Below are positions 1,662 through 21,243 of a stretch of DNA of 64,000 nt, piece after piece. Position 1 is the first letter of the stretch. The number at the start of each line of letters is the position of its first letter. The position numbers and the translations under genes were made by a program. This DNA comes from Desulfatiglandales bacterium (GTDB lineage Bacteria; Desulfobacterota; DSM-4660; Desulfatiglandales; Desulfatiglandaceae). Under the pieces are notes generated by a model. It had not been told where the DNA came from. It saw only the letters and a program-made list of their open reading frames with translations, and did no database searches. The stretch spans positions 3,200,001 to 3,264,000 of the forward strand of contig OY759599.1 in assembly GCA_963662465.1 (NCBI GenBank). Reading direction: 5' to 3'.

Positions 1662-3812
1662 ATGAAAAAGTCACGTTTCGTATCCTATCTTGTTGTTATC
1701 CAACTCATTTTTTTCATTTCGGGCTGTAAATGGACTATTCTGAGTGTAAACGGGCCGAAATGCGCCAGTACTGGAGAAACTGTCACAATCTATGTTGAAG
1801 GGACGAGTGAGAGCGAAGAGAATTCACCTACCCAATACGGTTTGATCCTCCAGATACCTGATAGTTGGCTTGTTTTGTCGGCAACCGCTGAAGTTTCTGG
1901 GGGTTCTTATAATCTGACGGAAAATGCGGAATATGCATCGCTCTATACTGCTGAATCCGGACAAAAGGTCTGGGTGGGAACTGCGACACAAACTTCCAAT
2001 GTTACTACAAACGGAATCGCAACGGTCGTGCTTATGATTGGTGATACTAGTGGACAGGTGAAAGTCGCTGCTGGCTCTTATCGAAACGGGGCTTGGACAA
2101 CCGATGACCCTGCCGGTCAATTTGATTTTGCAAATATAACTGAACAAAAATATATTCATTCAATTTCGACCGCCGACACCTGTATTCCGGCTTCACCTCC
2201 AACGCCAACATCAGTTAACCCTGCTTCAGGTTTCACCGACGCTGTTACGGAAATAACTGTTTATGGTTCCAACTTCCTCAAGGGCGGCGTCGCTGGGGTT
2301 ACGATCGGTGGCAATTGGATTTCATATACTAGTATTGCTTACGCTGCGGATGGGAGCTGGCTCCGTTTCAACGCCCCTGAACATTCAGCAGGAACTGTTG
2401 ATATCACGGTCCGTAATCCTGACAGTCAGGAAGGAACACTGGCAGACGGCTATACCTATATAGTTGACCCTTCTGCTCCCACCATAACTTCTATAGACCC
2501 GGTGTCAGGCCCAAGTGACGGTGGGACAACAGTTACGATCAAGGGTTCAAATTTTGACAATAATATCTATGTCTCAGTTTGCTCTTTTTCCGGGGTTGAT
2601 GTTTCCGATGATGGCACTTCCCTTACTTGCGTAACGGGTTCACACCCGGCCGGTGTCGTGGACGTTATGGTTCAGAACCCCGATTATCAAAGCGCTACAC
2701 TTGAAGACGCTTTCACTTATTATAATGTCTCACCTGCTCCCACCATAACTTCTATAGACCCGGTGTCAGGCCCAAGTGACGGTGGGACAACAGTTACGAT
2801 CAAGGGTTCAAATTTTGACAATAATATCTATGTCTCAGTTTGCTCTTTTTCCGGGGTTGATGTTTCCGATGATGGCACTTCCCTTACTTGCGTGACGGGT
2901 TCACACCCGGCCGGTGTCGTGGACGTTATGGTTCAGAACCCCGATTATCAAAGCGCTATACTTGGAGACGCTTTCACTTATTATAATGTCTCACCTGCTC
3001 CCACCATAACTTCTATAGACCCGGTGTCAGGCCCAAGTGACGGTGGGACAACAGTTACGATCAAGGGTTCAAATTTTGACAATAATATCTATGTCTCAGT
3101 TTGCTCTTTTTCCGGGGTTGATGTTTCCGATGATGGCACTTCCCTTACTTGCGTGACGGGTTCACACCCGGCCGGTGTCGTGGACGTTATGGTTCAGAAC
3201 CCCGATTATCAAAGCGCTATACTTGGAGACGCTTTCACTTATTATAATGTCTCACCTGCTCCCACCATAACTTCTATAGACCCGGTGTCAGGCCCAAGTG
3301 ACGGTGGGACAACAGTTACGATCAAGGGTTCAAATTTTGACAATAATATCTATGTCTCAGTTTGCTCTTTTTCCGGGGTTGATGTTTCCGATGATGGCAC
3401 TTCCCTTACTTGCGTGACGGGTTCACACCCGGCCGGTGTCGTGGACGTTATGGTTCAGAACCCCGATTATCAAAGCGCTACACTTGGAGACGCTTTCACT
3501 TATTATAACACTCCTTCGGTAATCTATATAAATGCTGAAGACTCTACCTGTTCAGGTAACAGCCCATGCTTCACTTCAATACAAGAGGGCATAGAAGCCG
3601 CAAAAAGTGAGACCCTCATTAAGGTGACTGCAGGCTATTATAATGAATCGCCATATCTCAATGAGACCAAAGTTTTGACTATCCAAGGTGGTTGGAATAC
3701 ATCTTATGTAATCCAGACTCCCGGTTCGACCGTGATCAGGATACCGAGCCAAACGTCTATTAAAGCGAACAAAGGGTCTCTCAAATTTGAAAACTTGAGC
3801 ATGAGGCCCTAA
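1662..3812 (+). CDS. Lipoprotein with five IPT/TIG domains
   Basis: Signal peptide with lipobox ISG-C; APTITSIDPVSGPSDGGTTVTIKGSNF IPT repeats. Confidence 0.85.
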   Translation: MKKSRFVSYLVVIQLIFFISGCKWTILSVNGPKCASTGETVTIYVEGTSESEENSPTQYGLILQIPDSWLVLSATAEVSGGSYNLTENAEYASLYTAESGQKVWVGTATQTSNVTTNGIATVVLMIGDTSGQVKVAAGSYRNGAWTTDDPAGQFDFANITEQKYIHSISTADTCIPASPPTPTSVNPASGFTDAVTEITVYGSNFLKGGVAGVTIGGNWISYTSIAYAADGSWLRFNAPEHSAGTVDITVRNPDSQEGTLADGYTYIVDPSAPTITSIDPVSGPSDGGTTVTIKGSNFDNNIYVSVCSFSGVDVSDDGTSLTCVTGSHPAGVVDVMVQNPDYQSATLEDAFTYYNVSPAPTITSIDPVSGPSDGGTTVTIKGSNFDNNIYVSVCSFSGVDVSDDGTSLTCVTGSHPAGVVDVMVQNPDYQSAILGDAFTYYNVSPAPTITSIDPVSGPSDGGTTVTIKGSNFDNNIYVSVCSFSGVDVSDDGTSLTCVTGSHPAGVVDVMVQNPDYQSAILGDAFTYYNVSPAPTITSIDPVSGPSDGGTTVTIKGSNFDNNIYVSVCSFSGVDVSDDGTSLTCVTGSHPAGVVDVMVQNPDYQSATLGDAFTYYNTPSVIYINAEDSTCSGNSPCFTSIQEGIEAAKSETLIKVTAGYYNESPYLNETKVLTIQGGWNTSYVIQTPGSTVIRIPSQTSIKANKGSLKFENLSMRP
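2473..3508 (+). repeat. Four near-identical 261-bp tandem repeats (87-aa IPT units)
   Basis: Units start at 2473, 2734, 2995 and 3256 and differ by only a few SNPs. Confidence 0.95.
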
Positions 3813-3865: not shown

Positions 3866-3952
3866 CGCGAACCAAACGCTTCACCGGACCCCTGGACGCG
3901 GCGGGGTAAATGGGACGTCCGGTGCAGGGGGCCGGTGAGCTTGTCGTTGGAC
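3866..3952 (+). other. attC site
   Basis: CGCGAAC-caaacgcttcaccggacccc...gggggccggtgagcttgtc-GTTGGAC; R'' pairs 6/7 with cassette start GTTCGCA (1583). Confidence 0.9.
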
Positions 3953-5448
3953 AGACCCGCTGGACAGCGGGGGATACCTAAACAAAACAATTGTTTAAGT
4001 CAAATATCCATGGGTGTGACCATTCAGTCAATTTTTCTTATGGGGTACGCTCTGTATGACCAGGCGCACCTTTTACCGGCGCATATTCGTGAGGCGGCCC
4101 ACTGTATCATGAGCTGCCGCACCGCCGCGCTGGGTGGGCATGTACAGGCCTGCCCGGATGGGCATTTTCAGCGGGTGTGGTATAATTCATGTAAACACCG
4201 CATGTGTCCTCTTTGCGCCTTTACCCAGGTGCAACGCTGGCTTTTGCAGCAAAAGTCCAGGCTGCTGAATACCCCTCATTTTCACGTGGTCTTCACCATT
4301 AGTGATGAACTGCATGATTTGTGGCGGTTGAACGTCAGACTCATGGGCAATATTCTGTTTAAGAGCGCCACCGAGACGCTTACGGAACTTCTTGGGGATC
4401 CGAAATACTTGGGCGCCAAAGTGGGGATCATTGCCTCTCTGCATACATGGACCCGCAAACTGGCGCTTCACCCGCACTTACACTGTCTGGTGACCGCCGG
4501 GGGACTGTCCCGGGGGCAATGGGTGGCTTCATCAAAAAAGTTCCTGCTGCCTTTCGGCATCGTCAGAGCCGTTTTCAGAGGCAAGTATCTTTATTACCTG
4601 AAAACGGCTCTTTCCCGCCGGGAACTGCTACTGCCCGAAGGCATGGGCCCCCAGCAGGCCCTGAACCTTATAAACAAGCTTGGCCGACGCAAAAAATGGA
4701 ATGTCAAGCTCAAGGAGACCTACTCCTATGGAGAAGGCGTACTGACGTACCTGGCGCGCTACCTTAGAGGCGGGCCCATATCAAACAAACGCATAGACCG
4801 CATCGAGGACGGAAAGGTGTTTTTCAACCATGGCCGAAAGAAACGCCGACTTACGTCACTGCCCATTCAAACCTTTATCGGGCTCTATCTTCAGCACGTA
4901 CCGCCGCCGCATACCATTATGGTCCGTTCATACGGACTTTATCACCACAGCGCGAAAGACGAACTCATGACGTGCCGGGAAACCCTTGGGCAGCCGCCGG
5001 TACAAATCCCGGAATTCCAGGATTGGCAGACGCTCTGGCAGGATCGAAGCGACGAGCACCCGGATCGCTGTCCGGTTTGCGGAAAACAACTGATCACTTT
5101 GGAAAAACTGCCGCCTGTAGCACAATCGGAAATGCCTTTAACCCAGAACGAAGACTCAGGGGAAATCTATGATCTTGCGGCATAAACAAATCCTTGGTCA
5201 GTCGATGTTTTTCCGGGTGGACAGGTCTATATACCGATGCTGCAAACCCGCATCACGAAACGATTTTGAGCCATTGAACAGGATGAAGCGCTCTAAAAAA
5301 GGAATTCTTTTTATTTTAATGGCGAAAACGATTGACCCCAAACGGATCTGGGCCGCTTTTACGGGCCGCAAACCCTGTACAATCTCCATAGGCCAGGCTA
5401 TCGTGCATATGGCTACCTGAGGGGGAATTACCCGCGGGTCTGTCCAAC
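3946..5448 (+). mobile_element. IS91-like element occupying one cassette slot, with a 15-bp perfect terminal IR overlapping the attC boxes
   Basis: gttggacagacccgc (3946-3960) is the exact reverse complement of gcgggtctgtccaac (5434-5448). Confidence 0.75.
4010..5185 (+). CDS. IS91-family (Y2/HUH) rolling-circle transposase
   Basis: Zn finger CRT..LGGH..C...NSCKHRMCPLC, HVVFT, HTW....HPHLHC (HUH), YLARY (Y2); ATG at 4010 chosen because the longer ORF crosses an attC. Confidence 0.92.
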   Translation: MGVTIQSIFLMGYALYDQAHLLPAHIREAAHCIMSCRTAALGGHVQACPDGHFQRVWYNSCKHRMCPLCAFTQVQRWLLQQKSRLLNTPHFHVVFTISDELHDLWRLNVRLMGNILFKSATETLTELLGDPKYLGAKVGIIASLHTWTRKLALHPHLHCLVTAGGLSRGQWVASSKKFLLPFGIVRAVFRGKYLYYLKTALSRRELLLPEGMGPQQALNLINKLGRRKKWNVKLKETYSYGEGVLTYLARYLRGGPISNKRIDRIEDGKVFFNHGRKKRRLTSLPIQTFIGLYLQHVPPPHTIMVRSYGLYHHSAKDELMTCRETLGQPPVQIPEFQDWQTLWQDRSDEHPDRCPVCGKQLITLEKLPPVAQSEMPLTQNEDSGEIYDLAA

Positions 5449-5570
5449 CAGGCGTTGAACCGGCAAACTGGTCTTTAGAGGTAAATTGAACTGATTCCTT
5501 CATATAATCTCAGTACCCGGGTTTCGATTCTGTGCGCGCAACCCGTTTGCCGGTTAACTAAACGTTGGCG
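5442..5570 (+). other. attC site
   Basis: GTCCAAC-caggcgttgaaccggcaaac...gtttgccggttaactaaac-GTTGGCG. Confidence 0.85.
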
Positions 5571-6490
5571 TGCCAATATCGGCAAATGCCTTTGAATACA
5601 TATTTTTTACTTCTGGGGTTACAGTGACAAACGAATCAAAGAGAATTACGAATTTTCGAATGTGGATAACCAAAGTAGTGCCAAGGTTTCCAAACAACAA
5701 ATCGACTTTGGCTTTATTCAAAGAAAAACACTTGATTGACATGCTCATAATTTATTTGAACTGGCGTGTCCGCTTCGTCGCTCCTCGCCAAAGAACAGTT
5801 CTTATTGAAAAATCTGCTATTAATGCCCCCAGATGGATTACACTCTCAGCAAGAATTGACGCCTTTTTAGAAAAAGTCCAAAATGGCGATGACTTGACAC
5901 CTTATCTTTCTAGAAAAGCCATTTCTAAAGGTTTTTTTCCGATAGCAGAAAAACCTGATTCTGACACAGACCATTGGGCCGACAAAGACTTTTTGTTAAA
6001 CGTCATGGGCCTCCATCATTTCCACCTGGTCCCTTGTGGTGGGCCTCATGGGCGTGACGCCCACAATGATGTACTCTTTGCCTTTGTTTCACGAGAAAAG
6101 TTTGAGGTAATTGGGATTTTTAATCACAATGTTTTTAAAAGCAGCGACTCCGGTTCTATGGCCGCAGAACGTTCACAGCTTTGGACTATTTACGAAAAGC
6201 GTGAACAAAGAGGTGCTTTTCCAGGGCAACTATTTTTGGGTGGCATGGGAGGGCTTGGTATAACGACGTCCGGACATTCAGTATCTCTTGTTCGTGCTGC
6301 TCAAAGATATTATCAACGAATCCGCGATGTAGAACAACAATTAGACGATCAATCATTTATAAATGAAATGTATTTATCTTCTTTGATTCCTGCCAAACCG
6401 AAACTCCGGTGGAGGCTAAATTTTCTGGATTTAGGAGTGCTTGACGAATCAACTAATACATTCTTCATATATGAGAAGGGACCAAACTAA
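5570..6490 (+). CDS. Hypothetical cassette protein (DFLLNVMGLHHFHL motif)
   Basis: 306 aa ORF directly after attC; true start probably downstream. Confidence 0.65.
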   Translation: MPISANAFEYIFFTSGVTVTNESKRITNFRMWITKVVPRFPNNKSTLALFKEKHLIDMLIIYLNWRVRFVAPRQRTVLIEKSAINAPRWITLSARIDAFLEKVQNGDDLTPYLSRKAISKGFFPIAEKPDSDTDHWADKDFLLNVMGLHHFHLVPCGGPHGRDAHNDVLFAFVSREKFEVIGIFNHNVFKSSDSGSMAAERSQLWTIYEKREQRGAFPGQLFLGGMGGLGITTSGHSVSLVRAAQRYYQRIRDVEQQLDDQSFINEMYLSSLIPAKPKLRWRLNFLDLGVLDESTNTFFIYEKGPN

Positions 6491-6598
6491 ATATCTCCAT
6501 GAGTTATGGCACTACCATTGCGATATATGCATGAATATTTGTAATAATAAAATGTAAAAAATCGACCAAGCACTTTAAAAAAACATCAAGGTACAATT

Positions 6599-7747
6599 AT
6601 GCAATATAGCGAATTCATTCCAAAATTTAGTGAATATAAATCTTTATTGGAAGAGTTAGATGGGATGCAAGTAACGTTAGTTAAGTTACTCGCCCTAGAT
6701 GTTCAGAAAATAGAAAGCAATTTTAATCATCAACAACCCACCAAAAATAAACTATTGGAGAAATACAATTTTCGTGAAAATAGAGCAGATGCTTTTATGA
6801 AAATATACAACTCATCTAATGTTTTTATCACAACCAAATATTTACAATTTGCTGATCGATACGGGCTCCTCGAATCCGTACCTGAACCAACTAATAAGCT
6901 GCTTCATCGATATAAGCTTACAAAAAGGGGGCAATCTTTTACAAACGAAGACTTAATTGTATTTGCTGAAATAGATTTATCTGAAATGCTGCTATTGATG
7001 CTAGATGATATTAAAGAGTCTGAAGAATCTGATGGTTTCAATTTTGATAAATTATACCCACTATTTGACAGCCGTGTTTCTCTTGAATTTGAAGAATCAA
7101 GAGTATCTAATTTGCTTGATCGAGGGTTGATTTCAAAACGATTTGATAATCAAGAGGAAGTTAATTGGTACAGGATATCAAAAAAAGGGAAGAAATATTT
7201 AAAAATGTTTCAAGGATTGTCCGACGGCAAGGACTTGCTGGAAAAAGTTTTTTTGGCAAGGAATGGTATAGAAAAACTGAAGTTGTTTAAGTACCTCTCA
7301 TCGATGGAAGCATACAAATTTGAATATTTCATAAGTAGAATTCTAAAAGAAATGGGATATCAAGATATTACAGTTACAGATAGGGGAGGTGATGGAGGAA
7401 TTGATATAAAGGCCAAGATAAAAGCTGGTACATCAACAATTAATGAGATAATTCAAGTAAAAAGGTGGAATAGTAATATCCAGCGTCCTACAGTCGATCA
7501 ACTGAGAGGGGTACTTTCAGTATCAGAGGCAACTAGGGGGAGCATTTTCACTATAAGTGACTTTAGCAGAGGTTGTTACGAAAGCGTAAGAAATGATAAC
7601 TCAATAAGTCTTATAAATGGAGAACAATTGCTAGGTCTCGTATTTAAATATGGTATTGGTGTAAGATCTAAGAGTTATAATGTATATCGATTTATGCCTA
7701 GTCATATCGATGAGCAGTTGAAAGACATAAAAATACCCAAAAATTAG
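6599..7747 (+). CDS. mrr: Mrr-family (type IV) restriction endonuclease with N-terminal wHTH-like regions
   Basis: FE..I..IL..MGY....T..GGDGGID...IQVKRW...LING Mrr_cat signature. Confidence 0.85.
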   Translation: MQYSEFIPKFSEYKSLLEELDGMQVTLVKLLALDVQKIESNFNHQQPTKNKLLEKYNFRENRADAFMKIYNSSNVFITTKYLQFADRYGLLESVPEPTNKLLHRYKLTKRGQSFTNEDLIVFAEIDLSEMLLLMLDDIKESEESDGFNFDKLYPLFDSRVSLEFEESRVSNLLDRGLISKRFDNQEEVNWYRISKKGKKYLKMFQGLSDGKDLLEKVFLARNGIEKLKLFKYLSSMEAYKFEYFISRILKEMGYQDITVTDRGGDGGIDIKAKIKAGTSTINEIIQVKRWNSNIQRPTVDQLRGVLSVSEATRGSIFTISDFSRGCYESVRNDNSISLINGEQLLGLVFKYGIGVRSKSYNVYRFMPSHIDEQLKDIKIPKN

Positions 7748-7888
7748 GATAAGAAAAAGATTTTGGGGTTACACTTCTCAAAATCCTCGCCAGCAAAAGG
7801 ACACTACGAGGGATTACCCCAAAAAATTTATCTTAGACACTATATCAAAGCTCCGCCGCTGACATCGATATGACGTAATGGAAATAGT

Positions 7889-8188
7889 ATGCAGGAACCT
7901 TTAGTTTTGGTGACAAGACTTGATGAATTAACTTTATTGGCTGATACAGAAGATTCTCTAGCGCGGGCTTCAATATATTCAGCAGTGAAAACAATTCAAG
8001 CTGAATTTAAGAAGTCTAAAATTTGCAAATTTAATAAGATTATTGAAATATTAGATAATTACTGCTTTTATATCTGTGCATCCATAGGGTACGAATTGAT
8101 TGTCAAAAAGACGAAACATGAGTGTTTGACTATCGCCAAAGCAAAACTTGAAGAACTACGATGTCAGATCAATCAAACTTTCTACTAG
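7889..8188 (+). CDS. Hypothetical protein
   Basis: 99 aa ORF within the same cassette. Confidence 0.5.
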   Translation: MQEPLVLVTRLDELTLLADTEDSLARASIYSAVKTIQAEFKKSKICKFNKIIEILDNYCFYICASIGYELIVKKTKHECLTIAKAKLEELRCQINQTFY

Positions 8189-8335
8189 CGGCCATGGCAG
8201 GGGATTTGCTACAAAGAAACATGAAAGAGCTTTTTGGTCAGACCAATCATAAGGCAAGGAAGTAGGGTGTTATTTATGAGGCAAGGTGGTCGCTATTTAC
8301 CATGAAATTCCGTGCAATTAAAAAGATCTTGATGC

Positions 8336-8421
8336 GGCCAACCAAGCGCTGCACCAGACGCCTGAAAGTTCTGCGTCCCGGCGGGGGCCCGGAGGAGGCG
8401 CTGGTGAGCTTATCGTTGAAC
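8336..8421 (+). other. attC site
   Basis: GGCCAAC-caagcgctgcaccagacgcctga...ggcgctggtgagcttatc-GTTGAAC; R'' pairs 6/7 with GTTGGCG (5564). Confidence 0.9.
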
Positions 8422-8570
8422 GAAGCTTCGCAAACGGCCAATTTGGTAAAAAGTTTCGTACTAACAAACCAGTTAAGTTGTTGCGGTTATTAGTATTATG
8501 TTGCTAAATCCAAAAAAAACAGCGGAGAGCAATCTCTAATAGCAAGTAGTGTGCCAAAACGACAAACCAT

Positions 8571-8699
8571 GTTCAACCAATGGTTCAAGTCTGATATTTT
8601 TCGTCCCAAAAATTGCATTTGAAATTTTATCGCCATTTTTCACGTTGGGAGGGCGGCAATTTTTGGGCCGAAAAATTACAGCTTAACTCAATGTTGTGG
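8571..8699 (+). other. attC site
   Basis: GTTCAAC-caatggttcaagtctga-tttttcgtcccaaaaattgc...gcaatttttgggccgaaaaa-ttacagcttaactcaat-GTTGTGG; R'' is the exact complement of GTTGAAC (8415). Confidence 0.85.
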
Positions 8700-8741
8700 A
8701 GCGATGAATAATTCCGTTTTGAAAAAAGAGGGAAATAGAAT

Positions 8742-11159
8742 ATGAGCATTCCACTATCTAGTATGGTTAATCGGATTGAGCCTCATAACACAGTTTTGTT
8801 CTTTGGAGCTGGTTCATCCATACCATCAGGTGCCCCAAGCGTGGATAATATAATTTCCCATATTTCTAATGAGTTCCAAATTGAGTCTAACAATTATTCT
8901 CTTAGCGAGATAGCAAGTCTTGCTGAGGAAAAGAGTGGGCGAAAAAGCCTAATCAATTGCCTCAGATCGCTTTTTAAGCTCCCTAGTGTGACAGGGAGTC
9001 TATTAAATTTACCATTGTATAATTGGAAAAATATATATACCACAAATTACGATCAACTTGTCGAACAATCTTATTCAAGAAAAAATACTCCTCTTACGGT
9101 TTATTCATCTAATTTTGACTTTACTGTGCAGTCAGTGCCAGAAGCAACGAAGCTATTTAAGCTTCATGGCACAATTGAGAAAGATGTTAGTGATGGCCAT
9201 AATAGCAGAATTATTATAAGTGAGTCTGATTATGACAATACTATTGATTACAGAGAGGCATTATTTGATGCTTTTAAAAATGATTTATCAGGTGCCAACT
9301 TAATAATTATCGGGTACTCACTTTCAGACCCACATATCAAAGATATCGTCAATAGATCTATTGATATAAATAATAAAATACAGAATCCATTTGCTATAAA
9401 CTTATTACTTTATACTGGAGATGAAAATCGTGCGATATTGTATGAAAAAAGAGGCATAAAAGTATCCTTTGGCGGACTTGATGACTTCTTTATTGAGTTG
9501 GCCAGAAAGTGTGACCCAATTGAAATTATTTATTCTTTTGCTGATAATCCATTAGATTTGGCTCCTGCTCTAAATGCAATCACGATAGATGTGGGCCACG
9601 AGGTTAAGTGCGCTCAAAAAAATGTAAGTGCGATGTATCAGGGGTGGCCAGCAAGTTATCCAGATATTCAAGCTCAAATTACATTCGAAAGAACATTATT
9701 AAAAGAAGTTGAAGCAGCACTTGAAAATGAAAAGCTTTGCACGACAATTTTAGGTGCAAGTGGTATAGGAAAAACAACTTTAGCTCGCCAGATTATTTTA
9801 GGTTTTCACAAAAAAAACTATTTTTGCTGGGAACACAAAAATGACCATACTTTGCAATATCAAATGTGGAGAAATGTCGCACGTGAAATGCAGTCAAAAG
9901 GTAAAAATGGAATTTTATTCATTGATGACGCTCACTCTCATCTATTTGAACTGAATAACTTAATAGATTTATTAATTTCTGACGGTTCTACAAGTTTAAA
10001 ACTTTTATTCACATCCGCCAGAAATCAATGGTATCCCCGTATTAAAACACCAAATATTTTTAAAAATGGTCAACAATTTATATTAAAAAAACTAGATGAA
10101 TCTGAAGTTGAAAATTTGCTAAACTTAGTTGAGACTTCTCCAGACATACGCCCATTGGTAGAAAACAGTTTCATCGGATTCTCACGAATCGAACGAAAAA
10201 GAAGGCTAACAGCTAAATGTGAATCCGACACTTTTGTGTGCTTAAAAAACATATTTGCTTCTGAAAAATTTGATGACATCGTACTGCGTGAATATGCGGA
10301 GTTGGAAACAAAATATAGGGATATTTATAGAATTGTTTCAGCAATGGAAAGTGCCGGAATTAGAGTTCACAGACAGCTTATCATTCGACTGTTAGGGGTG
10401 CCTGCTGCTGAGGTCCAAGCATCACTTACAAATTTGGTTGATATTATACATGAGTATACAGTGAGTGAAAGAGAAGGGATATATGGGTGGAAAGGTAGAC
10501 ATCCAGTTATTACTGACATTATAACTAAATACAAAATGGCAGATGAAAATGAATTTTATAAACTCATAGAGACTGTTATCGAGAATATCATACCAACTTA
10601 TGATATTGAAATAAGGACAATAAGGCAGCTATGTGGCTTCCATACTGGAATTGGTAGGTTTCCAGATAAACAAAGAAGAAATAAACTCTTTAGAAAATTG
10701 ATTTCCATAGCACCCGGTGAGAGGATCCCTCGTCATAGGTTGATCCGAAATTTAATTGAACTAAATGAATTTGATAAGGCCGAAACAGAAATCAGACTAT
10801 TTGCAAATGATTTTAAAATAGATGGCCCTGTTAGACGCTATAAAATAATACTTATGCTTGCACGAGCTCAAAATGCACCAGGTATACTCAAAGAAGATAG
10901 GATAGCAATATTGGATGAGGCGAGGGATAAAACTTTAATCGCAATTGAACTTCACCCTGATAACAAAAATATTATTAGAACATATTGTGACGTTGGCTTT
11001 GAATACTTTAAAATGACAGGGAATTTCGAATATTTTGATGAAGCTATGAAGTATTTAAGAGAAGCTGAAGAACGAATAGGTGATCCTGAAATCACGAGCT
11101 TGTTAATTATGTATGAAAGAAAATTAGCAGGCATTGAGTTCTATGAAGATAGTGAATAA
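8742..11159 (+). CDS. SIR2-like NADase + STAND-type P-loop NTPase + helical/TPR C-terminus (Avs5-like defence protein)
   Basis: LFFGAGSSIPSG, YTTNYD, KLHG (SIR2_2); Walker A GASGIGKT, Walker B FIDD; helical C-terminus. Confidence 0.8.
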   Translation: MSIPLSSMVNRIEPHNTVLFFGAGSSIPSGAPSVDNIISHISNEFQIESNNYSLSEIASLAEEKSGRKSLINCLRSLFKLPSVTGSLLNLPLYNWKNIYTTNYDQLVEQSYSRKNTPLTVYSSNFDFTVQSVPEATKLFKLHGTIEKDVSDGHNSRIIISESDYDNTIDYREALFDAFKNDLSGANLIIIGYSLSDPHIKDIVNRSIDINNKIQNPFAINLLLYTGDENRAILYEKRGIKVSFGGLDDFFIELARKCDPIEIIYSFADNPLDLAPALNAITIDVGHEVKCAQKNVSAMYQGWPASYPDIQAQITFERTLLKEVEAALENEKLCTTILGASGIGKTTLARQIILGFHKKNYFCWEHKNDHTLQYQMWRNVAREMQSKGKNGILFIDDAHSHLFELNNLIDLLISDGSTSLKLLFTSARNQWYPRIKTPNIFKNGQQFILKKLDESEVENLLNLVETSPDIRPLVENSFIGFSRIERKRRLTAKCESDTFVCLKNIFASEKFDDIVLREYAELETKYRDIYRIVSAMESAGIRVHRQLIIRLLGVPAAEVQASLTNLVDIIHEYTVSEREGIYGWKGRHPVITDIITKYKMADENEFYKLIETVIENIIPTYDIEIRTIRQLCGFHTGIGRFPDKQRRNKLFRKLISIAPGERIPRHRLIRNLIELNEFDKAETEIRLFANDFKIDGPVRRYKIILMLARAQNAPGILKEDRIAILDEARDKTLIAIELHPDNKNIIRTYCDVGFEYFKMTGNFEYFDEAMKYLREAEERIGDPEITSLLIMYERKLAGIEFYEDSE

Positions 11160-11194
11160 AAGGCAATAACAAAATGTCGTAGTTTTAAAGTAAA

Positions 11195-11254
11195 TAAATA
11201 AGCTGATCACTGGTGCGGACGCAAAGGGCGGCGCGGCACAGTTTGTTGTTGTGT
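11195..11254 (+). other. Degenerate attC site
   Basis: ctggtgcggacgc...gcgcggcacag hairpin ending in GTTGTGT, whose complement CACACAAC closes the next cassette at 14474-14481; R'' is decayed. Confidence 0.6.
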
Positions 11255-11306
11255 GTGCAGGGGAATGGACTCCAAATCCAACAAAATCTGATTGGGGATA
11301 AAATAA

Positions 11307-14300
11307 ATGTCGCTCTTTCAAAAATCGGTAATCAAGAAATATCTGGCCAACATTCCCCAAGAGGAAATTGCAGCTTCTTACGGAACATTCAAAGAAAAAT
11401 ACTCACCTGCTAAAATTGACGAGATAAAACGAATAAAAGAGGAAGAGTATCAAGATGGTTTCCTTAGAGATATTTTTGTCAGCGTCCTCGGCTACACTCT
11501 TAAGCCTGATGATGGCTATGATCTATCTCGTGAATTCAAAAACCAATCTGACAGCAAGAAGGCTGATGGAGCTATTTTAAAAAATGGGAAAGCCATTGCT
11601 GTAATAGAGCTGAAATCGAACAAAACAAAAAGCTTAAAAAGTATTACAGAACAAGCATTCAACTACAAAAACAATCAGCCTGAATGTAAATACGTTGTCA
11701 CGTCAAATTTCCGGAAATTACGGTTTTATATAGATTATGCTGGTGAATATGAAGAATTCAACTTGTTCAATATAGGAATAGAAGATTTTCAGTTGTTGTA
11801 TTTGATTTTGAACAAAAACAATCTTCTTGCCGATATCCCGATCAAACTCAAAAAAGAAAGCATTTACCATGAACAAGACGTATCAAACCGACTTTACAAA
11901 GAATATTCTGTTTTCAAAAAGGACCTTTTCCAGAATCTAACAAATAATAACCCCGAAAACGACAAGCTCACCCTATTTAAAAAATCACAAAAATTGATTG
12001 ACCGTTTTTTATTTATCTTTTTCGCAGAAGATAGAGGCTTACTTCCGCCTAATTCCATTGACCGTATTATCGAAAGATTTAACATTTTGAAAGACGAAGA
12101 TTCTTACAAGCCACTTTATGATATCTATAAACAATATTTTGGTTACATGAATATTGGACGTAAGGGGAAAATGCCAAATGATGATATCCCGGAATACAAT
12201 GGGGGTTTATTTGCTCCTGATGTAGTATTGGATGCTCTTATAATTGACGATTCTGTTTTGATTAACGACTTACAAAAATTTTCTGCTTATGATTTTAATA
12301 CAGAAGTTGACGTTAATGTACTTGGTCACATATTCGAACACTCCCTATCTGAAATTGAAGAAATTACGTCAAAGTTAGAAGGAAAAACAACCAACAAGAA
12401 TAGGAGTAAACGCAAAAAGGATGGCGTTTTTTATACTCCCAGTTACATTACACAGTACATTGTTGAAAATACGGTGGGGACACTTTGTGAAGAAAAACGC
12501 AAAGCGCTTGATCTTCTTGAGATTGAAATTCATGAAAGTCATCATAATAAATCTGGAAAATTATCAGCAAAGGGAAAGGACCTACAACAGAAACTTGAAA
12601 ACTATAAACAATGGTTGTTGTCATTAAGAATTCTTGACCCGGCTTGCGGTAGCGGCGCGTTTCTGAATCAGGCACTTAGTTTTCTTATAGATGAACATAA
12701 ACTGATTACAGAGTTTCAAACTGACTTGCAAAAAGGGCAAATTTCTCTTTTTAATATTGAGAACCACATTTTGGAAAACAACTTATACGGAGTTGATATT
12801 AATGAAGAAAGCGTTGAGATTACCAAGCTTTCACTTTGGTTACGTACAGCAAACAGAAAACGAAAACTTTCAAACTTGAGCAGCAATATTAGATGCGGAA
12901 ATTCATTGATAGATGATCCTAAAATTGCCGGAAAGAATGCTTTTAAATGGGATGGTGATTTTCCTGATATTATGAAAGAAGGGGGGTTTGATGTTATTAT
13001 TGGAAATCCCCCATATGTTCGCCAGGAATTGTTGGCACCTTATAAAACATACTTTGAAAAAAATTATCAATGCTATTCAGGAACAGCCGATCTCTTTTCA
13101 TATTTCTATGAAAAATCTTTGGTTCTGCTAAAAGAGTCAGGATATTTTGGTTTTATTTCAAATACATTTGCAAAAACAACTGGAGCAGCTGCAAAACTTC
13201 GTCATTTCTTAAAAAATAACAGCAGATTTATTTCTATTGCAGATTTTTCAGGTCAGAAAATATTTGAAGGAATTACCACCTATCCGATCATTCCGATATT
13301 AAAAAAAGAAAAATCATTTGGCAGATTCAATTACCTAAAAGTAAAAGAAAAAGATTTGCTGACGCTTAGTTATGCTATAGTACAAAATTCAATAGTTGTT
13401 GAGCAGTCTTTGTTAAAGGACGAATCTTGGAGTTTTGAATCTCAAACAAAACAAAACTTAAAAGAGAAAATTAAGGCAAATAAAACAGTCCGAGAAATTT
13501 TCGGAAAGAGCTATTACGGTATAAAAACCGGCTTAAATGTAGCATTTATTATTTCAGGTGATAAACGGAATGAAATAATTGCAAAGAATCCAAAAGAATC
13601 TGACATTATTAAACCGTTTATTGAAGGTAAGGACTTGAATAAGTGGACATGCCATGATGTTGGTAAATGGCTTATACTGTTTCCAAAAGGTTGGACTTCA
13701 ACTATTTCTGGTTGCAAAAATGAGCAAGAAGCATGGAAATATATTGAAAATGAATTTCCTGGGGTTGCAGGACATTTGTTAGATTATAAAGAAAAAGCAG
13801 TTCGACGGTATGACAAAGGAGAATTTTGGTGGGAACTGAGAGCTTGTAATTACTATGATTACTTTAATTCGAAAAAAATTACTTGGCCTAATTTACAATT
13901 TTCCAACAAATTTTCCTATGATGATAATGGATTTTACATCAATGCCCCATCTGTGATTCTTCCGACAGGCAGCAAAGTTTTACTCTGCATTATTAATTCA
14001 AAACTGGCATGGTTCTTTTTTAAAGATGTATGTGTAATGAGAAGCGGAGGATATGTTGAAGTAAAACCCCAATATTTTGAACAATTCCCTGTACACCTTC
14101 CTATTGATGAAAAGCCATTAAATGAAAAAGCAGACATCATACTCATGAAAAGTAAAGAACTTTATGAACTGAAAACTGATTTCCTCAATTTTTTTAAAAG
14201 CGAATTAGAGCCTGAAAAAATTACCAACAAACTGGAAAATTGGTATGAGCTTGATTGGGATCCGTTTAAGAAAGAAATGATAAAATGCAAAGTCAAAGAG

Positions 14301-14471
14301 TTAAGTCTGAAAGAACGCAAAGAATGGCAAGACTATTTTATCGAGCATAAGGAAAAAGCTAATAAACTTAAATCAATAATTACTGCTACCGACAAACAAA
14401 TAGACCAACTGGTTTACAAACTATACAACCTGAACGACGACGAAATCAAAATCGTAAATGGAGAAACATGA
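11307..14471 (+). CDS. Type IIG restriction-modification enzyme (fused REase/N6-MTase/TRD)
   Basis: N-terminal KADG...IELK nuclease, DPACGSG (motif I), NPPY (motif IV), TaqI_C-like TRD; stop 3 bp before the attC. Confidence 0.9.
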   Translation: MSLFQKSVIKKYLANIPQEEIAASYGTFKEKYSPAKIDEIKRIKEEEYQDGFLRDIFVSVLGYTLKPDDGYDLSREFKNQSDSKKADGAILKNGKAIAVIELKSNKTKSLKSITEQAFNYKNNQPECKYVVTSNFRKLRFYIDYAGEYEEFNLFNIGIEDFQLLYLILNKNNLLADIPIKLKKESIYHEQDVSNRLYKEYSVFKKDLFQNLTNNNPENDKLTLFKKSQKLIDRFLFIFFAEDRGLLPPNSIDRIIERFNILKDEDSYKPLYDIYKQYFGYMNIGRKGKMPNDDIPEYNGGLFAPDVVLDALIIDDSVLINDLQKFSAYDFNTEVDVNVLGHIFEHSLSEIEEITSKLEGKTTNKNRSKRKKDGVFYTPSYITQYIVENTVGTLCEEKRKALDLLEIEIHESHHNKSGKLSAKGKDLQQKLENYKQWLLSLRILDPACGSGAFLNQALSFLIDEHKLITEFQTDLQKGQISLFNIENHILENNLYGVDINEESVEITKLSLWLRTANRKRKLSNLSSNIRCGNSLIDDPKIAGKNAFKWDGDFPDIMKEGGFDVIIGNPPYVRQELLAPYKTYFEKNYQCYSGTADLFSYFYEKSLVLLKESGYFGFISNTFAKTTGAAAKLRHFLKNNSRFISIADFSGQKIFEGITTYPIIPILKKEKSFGRFNYLKVKEKDLLTLSYAIVQNSIVVEQSLLKDESWSFESQTKQNLKEKIKANKTVREIFGKSYYGIKTGLNVAFIISGDKRNEIIAKNPKESDIIKPFIEGKDLNKWTCHDVGKWLILFPKGWTSTISGCKNEQEAWKYIENEFPGVAGHLLDYKEKAVRRYDKGEFWWELRACNYYDYFNSKKITWPNLQFSNKFSYDDNGFYINAPSVILPTGSKVLLCIINSKLAWFFFKDVCVMRSGGYVEVKPQYFEQFPVHLPIDEKPLNEKADIILMKSKELYELKTDFLNFFKSELEPEKITNKLENWYELDWDPFKKEMIKCKVKELSLKERKEWQDYFIEHKEKANKLKSIITATDKQIDQLVYKLYNLNDDEIKIVNGET

Positions 14472-14474
14472 GTC

Positions 14475-14560
14475 ACACAACCAAACGCTCCACCAGACGC
14501 CTGAAAGTCTTGCGGTCCCAGCGGGGGCCGGTGGAGGCGCTGGTGAGCTTGTCGTTGTCG
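14475..14560 (+). other. attC site
   Basis: ACACAAC-caaacgctccaccagacgcctga...ggcgctggtgagcttgtc-GTTGTCG. Confidence 0.9.
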
Positions 14561-15069
14561 CGCCGAGGAAAGCTCGGCGTATCTTGCAAGGTGAAAGTCC
14601 CTGTCGGGAGGAAATTCAGTAATGGCTTTCTGTAAGGGTTAGCCACCCACCCGTATCGAGCCTTGGACCCATGGCGGAGTTGTTCAGTCTGTCAGGTGTA
14701 GGACACCGGCATTCATACGCCGGTTGGAAACGAGCCGCGCTCAGTGAGGCGGGGCATAAGTCGGAGGACTCACCCCGCCGAACGGCTTGAACAGCGAACA
14801 AGATGGGTTAAGCGTAGGCAGAGTATCCTGTAGGCCGCAGGGGTGATCGCGCACCCTGAAGAGCTGGTACAGCTTCGAAATAGCAATTGCGGACGCCGAG
14901 GGTTTCAACGTTCACCGAAGGCAACACAGAAGCATCCGTTATGGCGAGGATGTGGAGGTCCGCCGGAGTCCTCAGGCCGTGGCATGCAGGAAGAGATACG
15001 CCGTAGAACTCGGGAAGCCCCAAAGGCTCCAGGAAGTTTATTTCACACTGACGGTAAGGTAAAGGAACA

Positions 15070-16899
15070 GTGGTTCACTACACAACCGAAATGCTGAAAG
15101 GAACAACCGGGTGGGAGGTAAATCGGACATCCGATGGCCCTCTATACGCCGACGGGGTGTCTTATCAGGCATACTACTCAGCGGTGGGGAAAGCCCACTA
15201 CATGGGGAAGGACCTGACGGAAGTACGCAGCCTGCAAAGGAAACTCGTACCGGACAATGTAGGGCTGGAACAATATGAGCCAACCTCACTGCAGGGAATA
15301 GCCATTAAGGCAGAAGTTGATGGAAAACACCGTTTTCAAGACCTTTACCGGTGTCTGAATGCCGGATTCCTCCATGCTTGCTGGAAAGACCTGAATAAGG
15401 ACGCAGGCAGTGGTGTGGACAAAGTGACGGCCGAGGCCTACGAAGAAAATCTGGGGGCCAACATCGCGTCACTGGCGGAGCGATTGAAAACCAAACGTTA
15501 CCGTGCCAAATTGGTACGCAGAAGTTACATCCCCAAAGAAAACGGTAAACAACGCCCCTTGGGCATTCCGGCCCTTGAAGACCGGTTGGTTCAACTGGCA
15601 TGCGCCAAACTCCTGACAGCCATATATGAAGCCGACTTTCTGGATATCAGCTATGGTTACAGGCCCAACCGAAGCGCAAAGGATGCAGTCAATGACTTGC
15701 GCTTTGAACTTCAGTTTGGGACATATGGTTACGTCGTCGAGGCCGACATCAAAGGCTTTTTCGATCATATGGACCATGACTGGCTCTTGCGAATGCTCAA
15801 GGAAAGAATTGATGATGCGCCGTTTTTAAACCTGATCCAAAAATGGCTCAAAGCCGGCATTCTGGACACGGACGGTAAGATTATCCATCCGGAAAGCGGC
15901 ACTCCCCAAGGCGGGTTATGCAAAGCTTTGCATAAGCCTCCTTATGCCAAGTTGCCGATTATGCAAAGTAAACCGCTAAAGCTACCAGATTTCCAACACC
16001 TTCACTGAGTTTACTTTGCATAATATCACGGGTATCTCAAACTTGAAATCCAATTAAACGATGCAGCATCCTTGGTTTATTTTGGATAAAATGATCTGGT
16101 TTTTTTCCGACAAATGATTTTGTGAGCTTTTCGCTCAGTCATCATTAGCAAAGATTATGCTAAGTAAATCAAAAAGAAACCCTTGAATTCCAATGCGTTT
16201 TATGGCTTACTTTGCATAATTACTTTCTTTGCATAAGGGGGTATCGTATCGCCGGTTTTGGCAAATGTTTACCTGCATTTTGCCCTAGACTTATGGTTTG
16301 AAAAGATGGTGAAGCCCCACTGTAAAGGGGCCGCCATGATCATCCGGTACGCAGACGATTTTGTCTGCGCTTTTCAGTACAAGGTAGAGGCGAAAGGGTT
16401 TTTCGACGTACTGCCTGTAAGGCTGGAGAAGTTCGGTCTCAGTGTAGCGCCTGAGAAAACCGCCATGATGCGGTTCAGCCGCTTTGATCCGACCATGCGC
16501 AGGCGAATTGTCTTTTTGGGTTTTGAGACCTACTGGACCTATGACAAACAGGGAAAGGTGAGAGTCATGCAGCGCACCGCTCGCAAAAAGTTACAAGGTG
16601 CATGCAGGCGCATCAAGGAATGGGTGAAGGAAAACCGTCATTTGAAGGGGATCGCGTACATAAAGGCGCTCAACCGCAAACTGCGCGGACATTACAATTA
16701 TTACAGCGTGGTGGGAAACGCCAATTCGTTATGGCGTTTTTACCGATGGGCGGTAGATTGTTCGTTTAAGTGGCTGAACCGAAGAGGGGGAAAGCGTAAA
16801 AGCTTCACTTGGAAGGTGTTCCACCGGGCCTTAGATCGCCTGGGGATTGTTAAACCGAAGCTGCCGACGGCCCCACAGCCACGGAAAGTGTTTTGCTGA
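15070..16899 (+). pseudogene. ltrA: Group II intron RT/maturase, interrupted at GTPQGG by the insertion at 15916-16236
   Basis: RPLGIP, DIKGFFD, GTPQGG | IVSPVLAN, RYADDF, domain X LRGHYNYY; no HNH domain; start codon uncertain. Confidence 0.9.
15916..16236. mobile_element. Non-autonomous RIT-like miniature element (TTATGC/GCATAA site array)
   Basis: Terminal IR ttatgcaaag/ctttgcataa; TTATGC pairs spaced 17 bp at both ends (15942/15959; 16214/16231); internal inverted partners at 16009-16024 and 16154-16168. Confidence 0.75.
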
Positions 16900-17927: not shown

Positions 17928-18518
17928 ATGAACCAGCGATTTTATCTGCTGAAAATACGACTACTTGATATCGAGCCTGCAATCTGGCGTCGTTTTGTGG
18001 TGCCCGCCAGCATTACATTGGACCGTATGCACGATGTCATCCAGATTGTCATGGGCTGGAACGACAGCCATCTGCACGAATTCACGATTGGAAAAAAACG
18101 CTATACCGAATATCCAGAATCCAAAGAAGACGGACTGGTATGCGGCAGATACCGGATCGGGGATCTGATCAAACAGAAAGGCCGCACCTTTCATTATCTG
18201 TATGACTTTGGTGACAGCTGGGAGCACGAACTTGTTCTTGAAGAAAGTCGCTATTTCAATCCGGAATTGAGAACTGAACTGGCCTGTCTTGAAGGCGAAC
18301 GTGCCTGTCCGCCAGAAGATGTAGGTGGTGCGCCCGGTTATTATGAATTCTGCAAAGCACTGAAGGACCCGAGTCATGAAGAGCATGAAAGCTATATGGA
18401 ATGGTCCGGTGGTGACTACGACAGTGCAGGTTTTGATGCCGATGCCGTTTACTGGGAGCTGATAAAATACCTCCGCTGGTCCCGAGACAGATATCAAAAC
18501 TGGGAAGTAACAGAATGA
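17928..18518 (+). CDS. Plasmid pRiA4b ORF-3 family protein
   Basis: IWRRFVVP..ITL..HDVIQ..MGW.DSHLHEF, YLYDFGDSWEH, CPPEDVGG. Confidence 0.9.
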   Translation: MNQRFYLLKIRLLDIEPAIWRRFVVPASITLDRMHDVIQIVMGWNDSHLHEFTIGKKRYTEYPESKEDGLVCGRYRIGDLIKQKGRTFHYLYDFGDSWEHELVLEESRYFNPELRTELACLEGERACPPEDVGGAPGYYEFCKALKDPSHEEHESYMEWSGGDYDSAGFDADAVYWELIKYLRWSRDRYQNWEVTE

Positions 18519-19582
18519 AAAAGGGTAAAGACAAAAGAATACAGAAGCCCGGAAAAAAAGAGACATCCATTGTCCGGTCCTCGGCTGCTGAGTACCTGAC
18601 ATTTGTCGCGGCATGCGGTAAAGGAGGCGTTGAGGCAGTTTATGCAGATGAAAATATCTGGCTGACCCAAAAAATGATGGGCGTTCTCTACGATGTCGAG
18701 ACGCATACCATTAACTATCACTTGAAAAAGGTGTTTACTGATAGTGAGTTGGAAGAGGATTCAGTTATTCGAAATTTTCGAATAACTGCCGCAGATGGTA
18801 AAAATTACAATACTAAACATTACAATCTTTCGGCTATCATCGCTGTAGGCTACAAGGTCAACTCAGAACGTGCCGTGCAGTTCCGTAAATGGGCGACAAC
18901 GATTATTCAGGAGTTCACCATCAAAGGCTACACAATGGATGATGAGCGTCTAAAGAATAACGGTTCTGTCCTTGGCAAACAATATTTTGAAGAGCAATTG
19001 CAACGTATCCGGGAAATTCGTCTGAGTGAGCGTAAGTTCTATCAGAAAATTACCGATATCTATGCCTCGTCCATTGATTATGATATATCGGCTCAAGCCA
19101 CGAAGCGTTTTTTTGCGACGGTACAAAACAAGCTGCATTGGGCAATCCATGGCCAGACGGCTGCGGAAATGATCGTAGACCGTGCGGACCACAAAAAAGA
19201 TAATATGGGGCTGACCACCTGGAAAGACGCTCCAAAAGGTAAAATTCAAAAGTTCGATGTCAGTGTGGCCAAAAACTATTTGACCGAAAATGAAATGGCG
19301 CAATTGCAGCGGTTGGTCTCTGCCTATCTGGACGTTGCGGAAGATATGGCGCTACGGCAGATCCCGATGACGATGCAAGATTGGGAAAAACGCCTCAACC
19401 GGTTCATCGAAGCGACAGACCGGAAAATTCTGCAGGACGCAGGAAAAGTCACAGCAGAAATTGCCAAGGCCCATGCCGAAAGTGAATTTGAAAGATACCG
19501 CATCATTCAGGATCGCCTCTTTGAAAGTGACTTCGACCGGATGATCAAGCAGTTGGAACAGAAAAATGAGGATAAAGAATAG
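18515..19582 (+). CDS. rhuM: RhuM/virulence-associated DNA-binding family protein
   Basis: IWLTQKMM, YNLSAIIAVGYKVNS.RA.QFRKWA, IREIRLSERKFYQKITDIY. Confidence 0.9.
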   Translation: MKKGKDKRIQKPGKKETSIVRSSAAEYLTFVAACGKGGVEAVYADENIWLTQKMMGVLYDVETHTINYHLKKVFTDSELEEDSVIRNFRITAADGKNYNTKHYNLSAIIAVGYKVNSERAVQFRKWATTIIQEFTIKGYTMDDERLKNNGSVLGKQYFEEQLQRIREIRLSERKFYQKITDIYASSIDYDISAQATKRFFATVQNKLHWAIHGQTAAEMIVDRADHKKDNMGLTTWKDAPKGKIQKFDVSVAKNYLTENEMAQLQRLVSAYLDVAEDMALRQIPMTMQDWEKRLNRFIEATDRKILQDAGKVTAEIAKAHAESEFERYRIIQDRLFESDFDRMIKQLEQKNEDKE

Positions 19583-20683: not shown

Positions 20684-21161
20684 ATAGGGATAGGGAGGAG
20701 CCTCACAGCTCCCCCCTCCCACACCAATAGGCCGGGCTCGTCAGGGCTATGACTCGAAATGTTCCTGACGCCAGGGTTTTGTTTTACCGGTTTTCCCTTA
20801 TATTCCGGTAGATTTCAGTTGCAGTTCCCTACGAGGCGCAATGGGCCTCCCGGGGTAAACACGTGTCTTTCCGCACACGAGCGCCGACCACGTGCCTGGC
20901 CTGTAGTAGTTAGAGGACTTTGTTCTGTGTTGCGAACTCGTCCCACCAGACCCGCCTCACTCGATTTCTGTTCGTCGCCCCGTGCGTTTACGGTGCCCTG
21001 CCGCAGCAAGGCCACTGCCTCTCCAGGCCCGTTACCGGGTACCCGGTTGTGATACCGCTACACCCTTCGCCACTACCTGGCTGGGTCTGGGACTTGCGTA
21101 AAATATCGGAAGCATGGTACATTACGCGCACCCTTAAGAACATGTGCCGTGCCCGGCACAC
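20684..21161 (-). mobile_element. ORF-less, internally deleted group IIC-attC intron
   Basis: Minus strand begins GTGTGCCGGGCACGGCAC and ends tggtgtgggaggggggagctgtgaggctcctccctatccctat; removing it restores R'' ACAT|AAC. Confidence 0.85.
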
Positions 21162-21243
21162 AACCAAGCGCTGCACCAGACGCCTGATACTTGGGCAGTT
21201 CCAGCGGAAGCCGGAGAAGGCGCTGGTGAGCTTGTCGTTGGCC
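21162..21243 (+). other. attC site (R'' split by the intron)
   Basis: AAC-caagcgctgcaccagacgcctgatacttggg...ggcgctggtgagcttgtc-GTTGGCC. Confidence 0.9.

Follow-up and report, generated by a model that had tools for sequence, protein, structure and literature searches.

Integron gene cassettes are usually regarded as passive cargo, moved about by the integrase of the integron. The substrate that this enzyme recombines is the bottom strand of the attC site, folded into an imperfect hairpin with the consensus boxes R''(RYYYAAC)-L''(GTTRRRY)...L'(RYYYAAC)-R'(GTTRRRY); the enzyme's target sites carry, by established consensus, a G before TT, and the cellular origin of the single-stranded attC substrate is a standing question. 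Here we describe a cassette with an unusual content, located in a stretch of 64,000 nucleotides from a Desulfatiglandales bacterium (contig OY759599.1, positions 3,200,001 to 3,264,000; we call the whole stretch the window, and positions refer to it unless the genome is named). Its only gene, tnpA, encodes an intact Y2/HUH transposase of the IS91 clade. In our opinion, it is quite likely that this element is an integron gene cassette with the transposase as its cargo, and that it was inserted by an integron integrase. The cassette anatomy is there to be seen: the unit starts with TT, ends with G, has a canonical attC and lies co-oriented in an array. We infer insertion by the integrase because related copies have landed at attI in three integrons, because intI adjoins the family elsewhere, because the boundaries keep the G|TT register, and because no copy was found outside the arrays.

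Several described systems are close to this element. The canonical elements IS91, IS801, IS1294 and IS1294b have the same transposase domains and catalytic motifs as the window protein. Upstream of tnpA, the IS91 family has a cleavage tetranucleotide (GTTC in IS801 and IS1294) beside one palindrome, which is the terIS layout; downstream, palindromes lie beside a target tetranucleotide, CTTG, GTTC or GTCC; and a bottom-strand single-stranded circle is the functional intermediate (all according to PMC13181058). Set against that description, an upstream tetranucleotide with a palindrome and a downstream palindromic region beside a GTT-type tetranucleotide are common to the family and to the window element. 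However, canonical IS91 elements lack both terminal inverted repeats and an attC and insert at tetranucleotides wherever these occur, whereas the window element has a 15-base-pair (bp) inverted repeat and a full attC and occurs in integrons only. Thus, of the features that define the family, the Zn-binding N-terminus followed by a Y2 HUH domain is present; different ends without terminal inverted repeats are not, although the left end does resemble terIS; and insertion by a four-nucleotide target anywhere, with no target duplication, does not describe the copies (0/17 lie outside arrays). Identity to the window protein is 31-41% for conventional relatives from this phylum.

The closest named precedent is gcISKpn22, the last cassette of the class 1 integron In722 on IncN plasmids, for example pMRY16-398_2 and pKPI-6. 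The composition of In722, as given in PMC6262049, is intI1, aacA4'-3, blaIMP-6, aadA2 and gcISKpn22. In NZ_AP018758.1 an IS91-family transposase gene (7233-8348) fills one cassette slot, which starts with G|TTGAAC behind the aadA2 attC, and the cassette's own attC (R'' GTTCAAC ... R' GTTAGAT) precedes qacEdelta1. Both elements therefore have an IS91-clade tnpA as the sole cassette gene, an attC of their own and a short repeat derived from the R boxes. On the other hand, the two proteins are only 36% identical, the repeat of gcISKpn22 is 9 bp rather than 15, it has neither the CC(C)GC hairpin of the same sequence nor the CTCCATAG box, and it is present as one copy on a clinical plasmid, whereas the window family is multicopy and chromosomal. 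A quick tree search with 100 proteins (rows shorter than 330 amino acids dropped; 77 cassette-type proteins chosen by their likeness to the query) places gcISKpn22 together with these 77 on one side of a branch, with an SH-aLRT (approximate likelihood ratio test) support of 100, and 22 conventional transposases on the other side. Only the placement of gcISKpn22 is informative in this tree, and even that is uncertain, as its branch is long (2.11). Mainly the open literature was searched, with ISfinder, TnPedia and INTEGRALL outside the search, and nothing describing the architecture of an IS91-type transposase cassette turned up there except the name gcISKpn22. The window element is a long-repeat variant of a kind that has been named in a database without a description.

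Two further comparisons are useful. In IS91-type elements with an upstream IntI-like recombinase, such as those on Clostridium estertheticum plasmids, a Y2 transposase has as its partner a recombinase from the integron-like subgroup. There the two genes overlap in one operon inside the element, whereas in the window family the integrase is the integron's own, is divergently placed, and the transposase is a cassette; the Clostridium transposase is 37% identical to the window protein and falls on the conventional side of the tree. IS1111-attC elements and group IIC-attC introns live in cassette arrays and exploit attC, as the window family does. IS1111-attC elements interrupt an attC and are not cassettes, and the same is true of the introns; the window element interrupts nothing and brings its own attC, which travels with it downstream of the gene. 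The features of the locus are as follows.

3866..3952, plus strand: attC of host type belonging to the preceding cassette, with R'' CGCGAAC at 3866-3872 and R' GTTGGAC at 3946-3952.
3946..3963, plus strand: left inverted-repeat arm, including the R' box; 15 bp perfect, 18 bp with one mismatch.
3947..5564, plus strand: transposase gene cassette of 1618 bp, starting with the TT that follows the G of the upstream R' and ending with the G of its own R'.
3956..3971, plus strand: left subterminal GC hairpin CCCGCTG-GA-CAGCGGG, read in the sequence, with a GC stem kept in relatives.
4010..5185, plus strand: tnpA, 391 amino acids, IS91-clade transposase with a Zn-binding N-terminus and a Y2 HUH domain (Pfam).
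5381..5391, plus strand: box AATCTCCATAG, 11 nucleotides, in the 3' untranslated stretch, invariant in four genomic subfamilies.
5430..5448, plus strand: right end, composed of the palindrome ACCCGCGGGT (5430-5439) and the right repeat arm (5434-5448) with R'' GTCCAAC at 5442-5448.
5442..5570, plus strand: the cassette's own attC, 129 nucleotides, identified by its fold, its boxes and compensatory changes.

The perfect inverted repeat consists of GTTGGACAGACCCGC at 3946-3960 and its exact reverse complement at 5434-5448. Each arm is an R box, R' of the upstream attC on the left and R'' of the downstream attC on the right, extended by eight further bases. When up to two mismatches are allowed, the 15-mer occurs in the whole window only at these two ends (chance expectation 0.07; at least two matches in 0/100 shuffles). 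In the three other cassettes of the window that can be delimited, terminal pairing extends over 6, 6 and 8 bp, as opposed to 15 in the transposase cassette; we estimate the chance of eight extra matching bases at about 1.5e-5. The protein is matched by Zn_Tnp_IS91 (PF14319, E 5.5e-26) and Y2_Tnp (PF04986, E 8.2e-47), and its HPHLH and YLARY motifs are intact. An earlier note on this DNA, made from its letters alone, had already pointed to the exact repeat that takes in both R boxes, to the shorter pairing in other cassettes, to the intact transposase and to the left hairpin, and all four observations hold. The GC stem of the hairpin recurs in relatives, with a variable loop. The note was also right that the transposase fills a single cassette slot, but the extent it gave, 3866-5570, takes in the whole attC of the preceding cassette, and the slot itself is 3947-5564. 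A palindrome at the right end, also reported there, does exist, but it is kept in close relatives only. Finally, the note expected the end GCGGGTCTGTC to be followed by an attC; instead, this end overlaps the R'' of the cassette's own attC. A small open reading frame at 5169-5420 was considered as a gene and rejected, because Pfam has no match to it and the 3' stretch around it is poorly conserved.

The boundaries were set by comparing 17 genomic copies with differing flanks, together with metagenome copies in which the base before TTGGAC varies. The last six bases of the upstream attC, TTGGAC, are the start of the transposase cassette and are complementary to the cassette's own R'', as expected at a G|TT boundary. 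The upstream attC has arms at 3881-3897 and 3922-3938 that are 88% complementary. The cassette's own attC reads R'' GTCCAAC, spacer CAGGC, L'' GTTGAACCGGCAAAC (5454-5468), a variable loop, L' GTTTGCCGGTTAAC (5545-5558), spacer TAAAC and R' GTTGGCG (5564-5570), with the crossover point between 5564 and 5565. Its boxes GTCCAAC / GTTGAAC ... GGTTAAC / GTTGGCG are thus arranged as an imperfect hairpin in the order R''-L''...L'-R', and R' becomes GTTGGAC once the cassette is circular. The fold (-20.1 kcal/mol) has a single unpaired base in the 5' arm, an extra G after GTT in L''; one such extrahelical base is clear in the window copy, and the pattern of unpaired bases, '(((.((((((', recurs in relatives. 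Both attCs that flank tnpA are complete, and neither is interrupted. The first ~23 kb of the window is a co-oriented cassette array, in which a pattern search finds five near-identical attCs of host type (starts 1508, 3870, 8340, 14479 and 21162). The only intI sequence near this array is a C-terminal remnant about 0.8 kb left of the window; three sister copies lie at an attI beside a full intI gene.

The genome, searched as a single contig of 8.16 Mb, encodes the window protein at 17 places (76-100% identity; 16 full-length and one truncated) among 31 matches; the remaining 14 are unrelated IS91-like genes with 24-32% identity. When the genome is searched for the 15-mer, as the earlier note had proposed, and no more than one mismatch is allowed, there are 30 occurrences, every one of them at the end of a copy, and none for the reversed control; repeat pairs without the gene, which would be non-autonomous derivatives, are absent among these 30. 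Every copy starts with TTGGACAGACCCGC... after a G and continues with the gene, the right repeat arm and a characteristic attC ending in ...TTAACTAAA(A)CG. Beyond the cassette end the flanks diverge, on the right directly after ...ACGTT. This type of attC has 15 hits in the genome, 15/15 directly behind a copy of the transposase and none on its own; the two copies without it are the one with the truncated gene (#17) and a copy (#4) whose attC is cut at L''.

The left flanks are of four kinds. A host-type or other attC precedes four copies (the window copy c1, c14, c15 and #17); repeat-rich attI-like sequence precedes another four (c2, t8, c5 and c16); the unit's own attC forms the flank at the seven junctions of an eightfold tandem array of 1609-bp units; and two copies (#3 and #4) follow a group II intron that is inserted six bases into the unit. 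At c2, t8 and c16, an intI gene that scores above the TIGR02249 cut-off is found on the opposite strand, at a distance of 178, 178 and 237 bp, respectively, and therefore the transposase cassette is the first cassette of three integrons; one of these three copies heads the array of eight identical units. The remaining copy with an attI-like flank, c5, has no intI that we could find nearby. Clusters of the host-type attC (56 nhmmer hits genome-wide) coincide with all copy locations, and each of the 17 copies is part of a cassette array. Every junction falls on the GTT of an attI or attC, on the attC that the unit itself carries, or, where an intron occupies such a site, after this intron. Copy c2 equals the tandem units over all 1608 shared positions (1608/1610 aligned columns), while their attI regions differ; c5 equals c14 (1629/1629) in a different context; and the eight tandem units are identical to each other. 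Judging from these alignments, identical copies in different contexts (c2 and the tandem units, c5 and c14) appear to be the product of recent movement.

Some details of these copies deserve a record of their own. The attI regions are of two types (genome 3288644-3288821, 4425230-4425407 and 6792518-6792754). The first has repeated CAATAGATGGAAAA motifs and the palindrome AATAGGTGGAAAATTTTCCACCTATT; the second has repeated TATCAGGGCAAAATGACCTGATAAT palindromes and is also seen, with no intI gene, at c5 and at locus L025 of a metagenome-assembled genome. Group II introns target the ends of the transposase cassette in four copies: in #3 (3339768) and #4 (3354150) they sit inside the left end, between GTTGGA and CAGACCCGC, and in c14 and c15 directly behind the cassette's attC, at GTTCTC|GCGCCGAGG. 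The boxes of the cassette are therefore intron homing sites as well. In copy #4 (genome 3355686-3355720) the attC breaks off at L'' GTTGAAC and joins the cassette that follows attC 8340-8421 in the window (8415-8500). This fusion looks like the result of recombination at L'' as a secondary GTT site, and it shows a route by which this transposase gene can come by a different attC.

Across the four genomic subfamilies, which are 66-83% identical overall, the first 29 nucleotides are invariant; in the remaining 5' leader 18% of positions are invariant, and in the 3' untranslated stretch 26%, except for the AATCTCCATAG box and the right end GACCCGCGG.TCTGTCCAAC. The L arms of attC have compensatory changes (CCGG/CCGG, CTGG/CCAG, CAGG/CCTG) and the loop varies freely. 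In eight aligned relatives, down to 47% identity, the residues H154, P155, H156, H158, Y247 and Y251 and the Cys clusters are all invariant, as are the HPHLH and YLARY motifs.

Relatives in other genomes were collected in several scans. A scan of reference genomes gave two loci (75-76%). Matches were present in 32 of a sample of 401 genomes of the phylum: three loci with 47-60% identity and the partial locus L051 (54%, right end only) have the same kind of ends, whereas those with 31-41% have no GTT...AAC end repeat, apart from an 8-bp GTTGAACT repeat at L049. One metagenome scan gave 80 loci (49-77%). The compiled set has 90 loci, 86 foreign and four representatives from the genome of the window. 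Both ends could be located in 61/90, although the pairings at L051 and L063 are probably spurious; in most of the remaining 29 the sequence stops too soon. The common plan in other genomes and metagenomes is TTGGAC, a GC hairpin, the gene, a conserved box, a GTCCAAC box and attC. The left GC stem has the form CC(C)GC-loop-GCGG(G) with loops of 3-6 nucleotides, and CTCCATAG or CCCCATAG takes the place of the AATCTCCATAG box in soil relatives, which also differ at the palindrome ACCCGCGGGT.

Across 56 distinct end pairs, the share in which the two arms pair is 96-100% at repeat positions 2-7, 89-93% at 11-12 and 52-75% at 8-10; beyond position 15 it is irregular (23%-75%). Changes on both sides were seen at positions 5 (G-C / A-T), 8 (A-T / T-A) and 9, so that the ends stay complementary; locus L062 retains a perfect 15-bp repeat through two compensated changes and has the left hairpin CCTGC...GCAGG. 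Searching for attC in these relatives required constrained folding, because exact matching of 8-bp L boxes missed 50/65 loci owing to unpaired bases. An R''...GTT structure was found behind the gene in 50/90 loci, as a long imperfect hairpin of -0.09 to -0.32 kcal/mol per nucleotide. Of the 40 loci with no such structure, 32 had less than 420 nucleotides downstream; among the other eight, five have variant boxes and a hairpin recognizable by eye, one has an element inserted at the box, and two have no clear assignment. Upstream of the cassette, L057 and L087 have clear attCs, although these fell below the energy threshold that was applied. An intI gene adjoins L062 and L092, and a partial one is present at L088 and L104. 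Hence the homologues are attC-adjacent and keep the end motif, which is the opposite of what the earlier note had named as grounds for abandoning its reading. We conclude that the element belongs to an old and widespread cassette-borne clade.

TTGGAC is preceded by A, C or T and not by G in 10/56 distinct end pairs; therefore the left boundary lies between that base and TT. This boundary is the integrase crossover point, whereas an IS91-type tetranucleotide end would require one base earlier. A soil subgroup (L077, L083, L096, L110, L114, L119, L123 and L125, and also L127 and L128) has such bases other than G. The attC of the soil subgroup has a near-perfect stem of 21 bp and a 3' spacer of 10 nucleotides (ATCCTAATGT) before GTT. 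Either the integrase sites of this subgroup are non-canonical, or they hint at insertion by a different route.

How would such a cassette work? An integron integrase would insert it, and probably excise it, at the G|TT of attI or attC like any other cassette. The eight extra paired bases, which are 1.5 kb apart in the linear array, would adjoin in a circular or single-stranded form and in tandem copies; there they would lengthen the basal stem of attC, which should favour its folding and hence recombination. At the natural tandem junction the bottom strand indeed folds with the R-box stem extended by ~10 pairs (-32 kcal/mol, z -4.7, 0/200 shuffles as good), whereas in the linear context of the window there are five R-box pairs only (z -1.95). 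Three features, namely the left hairpin, the right end and the AATCTCCATAG box, resemble signals of the terIS/oriIS type that were kept for a still intact transposase; the box may be left over from an oriIS or may still serve in one. The transposase looks active, and the conserved signal in the ends exceeds what an attC requires. In our opinion, the balance is slightly in favour of the transposase still acting on the ends of its cassette.

Several points weigh against the integrase as a sufficient explanation. An account by integrase only leaves the 29-nucleotide invariant left end, the internal box and the intact HUH enzyme unexplained. Seventeen copies and an eightfold tandem array are unusual for a cassette, and the bases other than G in 10/56 end pairs are unusual for integrase target sites. 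The window copy is a single divergent variant, with 66-68% DNA identity to the other three subfamilies and with no near-identical twin; it is the least active-looking member of the family, and its own array has only a remnant of intI. Moreover, eight sequencing runs are listed as containing this DNA, with no RNA run among them, and the contigs of four of these runs have no precise empty site or clean circle junction, although contigs cannot show rare circles. Two of them (X1 and X2) have a joint that goes back from 5573 to 3862 (side 33), which we considered as a circle and rejected because it is off G|TT. A contig of a third run (X3), from a related sample, lacks 5046-5554 and with it the right end, much the greater part of attC and the 3' end of tnpA; this variant is a deletion derivative and not a precise excision.

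A more ambitious explanation, which we put forward as tentative, is that the cassette copies itself with two enzymes: the transposase would nick the conserved ends and make bottom-strand single-stranded circles, and the integrase would paste these into attI, so that the element would be a transposon with integration outsourced to the integron. Such a cycle would account for the copy number, the identical copies at the attI sites of two integrons and the array of eight identical units. It agrees with the invariance of the catalytic HUH and two-tyrosine motifs; with the layout of the ends, which have a tetranucleotide (GTTG) and one GC hairpin upstream of tnpA, like terIS, and a conserved box, a large palindrome (attC) and GTT downstream; and with the fact that a bottom-strand circle would present exactly the folded strand that is used by the integrase. 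The relatives beside intI or parts of it (L062, L092, L088 and L104) and the IS91-type transposases in operons with IntI-like tyrosine recombinases also point in this direction. However, this support is circumstantial throughout. Tandem arrays also arise from unequal crossing-over, and duplicates from replicative resolution of an integrase-mediated excision. The conserved ends are inverted, whereas the nick sites of a rolling-circle ori and ter should be direct repeats, and the only direct repeat is the boundary GTT; nor did the contigs of the four runs contain circles.

The earlier note had left a choice between two readings: an HUH element that docks into attC hairpins, and thus an autonomous insertion sequence, or a transposase carried in a cassette that IntI can mobilize and whose attC stem is extended. 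The second description fits all of the junction evidence. The first, in which the HUH transposase alone recognizes the GTT/AAC boxes of a folded attC (or of attI), we consider improbable. It is true that the transposase is intact, that conservation of the ends exceeds the needs of attC, that targets of the IS91 family are tetranucleotides of the GTT/CTT type, and that some end pairs have a base other than G before TTGGAC; in addition, L024, L026 and L051 have other attC types behind the same right end. But no attC is split, those on either side of the window gene being complete; the unit invariably carries an entire attC with it; all copies are found in integrons; and in three integrons the insertion is exactly at attI, which is not a hairpin. 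Fusion with the following cassette, as in copy #4, accounts for the different attC types. Less probable still is an inert passenger, a dead or domesticated transposase trapped in a cassette whose long repeat is due to chance or neutral, since the absence of a close twin of the window copy, and of the strong ribosome-binding site that is found in other subfamilies, has to be set against catalytic residues invariant down to 47% identity, ends that are conserved next to untranslated DNA with 18-26% invariant positions, paired changes that maintain end complementarity, identical copies at different sites, and the low chance of eight extra matching bases given above.

The cargo here is a single-strand DNA enzyme whose end signals were retained over hundreds of millions of base changes, and which has multiplied far beyond normal cassettes, with 17 copies, the first position in three integrons and an eightfold tandem array. 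The case unites two single-strand DNA mobility systems, which is real and unusual. If it is true that the transposase feeds single-stranded circles to the integrase, mobile DNA would have a new route of spread, and the single-stranded attC substrate would have a natural source. The origin of attC sites and of integron integrases is a further question on which the family has a bearing; the closest homologues of IntI are reported to be recombinases in IS91 and IS3 transposons (10.1101/542381). If the two-enzyme cycle operates, the family might be a living link between IS91 elements that bear IntI-like recombinases and integrons. A distant member, gcISKpn22, already rides in a clinical class 1 integron.

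A few observations concern the neighbouring cassettes. The preceding cassette (1662-3812, plus strand) encodes a lipoprotein-like protein of 716 amino acids with five IPT/TIG domains, four of which are near-identical tandem repeats of ~90 amino acids each. Large cassettes follow in 5570-14471, and their genes resemble defence genes, namely a restriction endonuclease of the Mrr type (6599-7747), a SIR2-STAND nucleoside triphosphatase (8742-11159) and a restriction-modification enzyme of the Eco57I/MmeI type (11307-14471). Further on, 18515-19582 encodes a RhuM-family protein. Between 5565 and 8415 there are three open reading frames with no attC seen within.

A search of Rfam at gathering scores over window positions 1-24000 gave two group II intron matches and nothing else. 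The first intron (14555-~17010, plus strand; Rfam group-II-D1D4-6 at 14620-14978) begins six bases into the R' of the attC at 14479-14560 (GTTGTC|GCGCC), in cassette direction. Its reverse transcriptase frame is split into two open reading frames (15070-16008 and 16258-16899), with ~250 bp of AT-rich, repeat-bearing DNA between them. The second intron, a short one (20686-~21100, minus strand; Rfam group-II-D1D4-3 at 20859-21041), sits on the other strand, a little to the left of the attC at 21162-21239. The end of this intron, GGGATAGGGAGGAGCC..., is also present at the R'' box of a related transposase cassette in the metagenome (L067).

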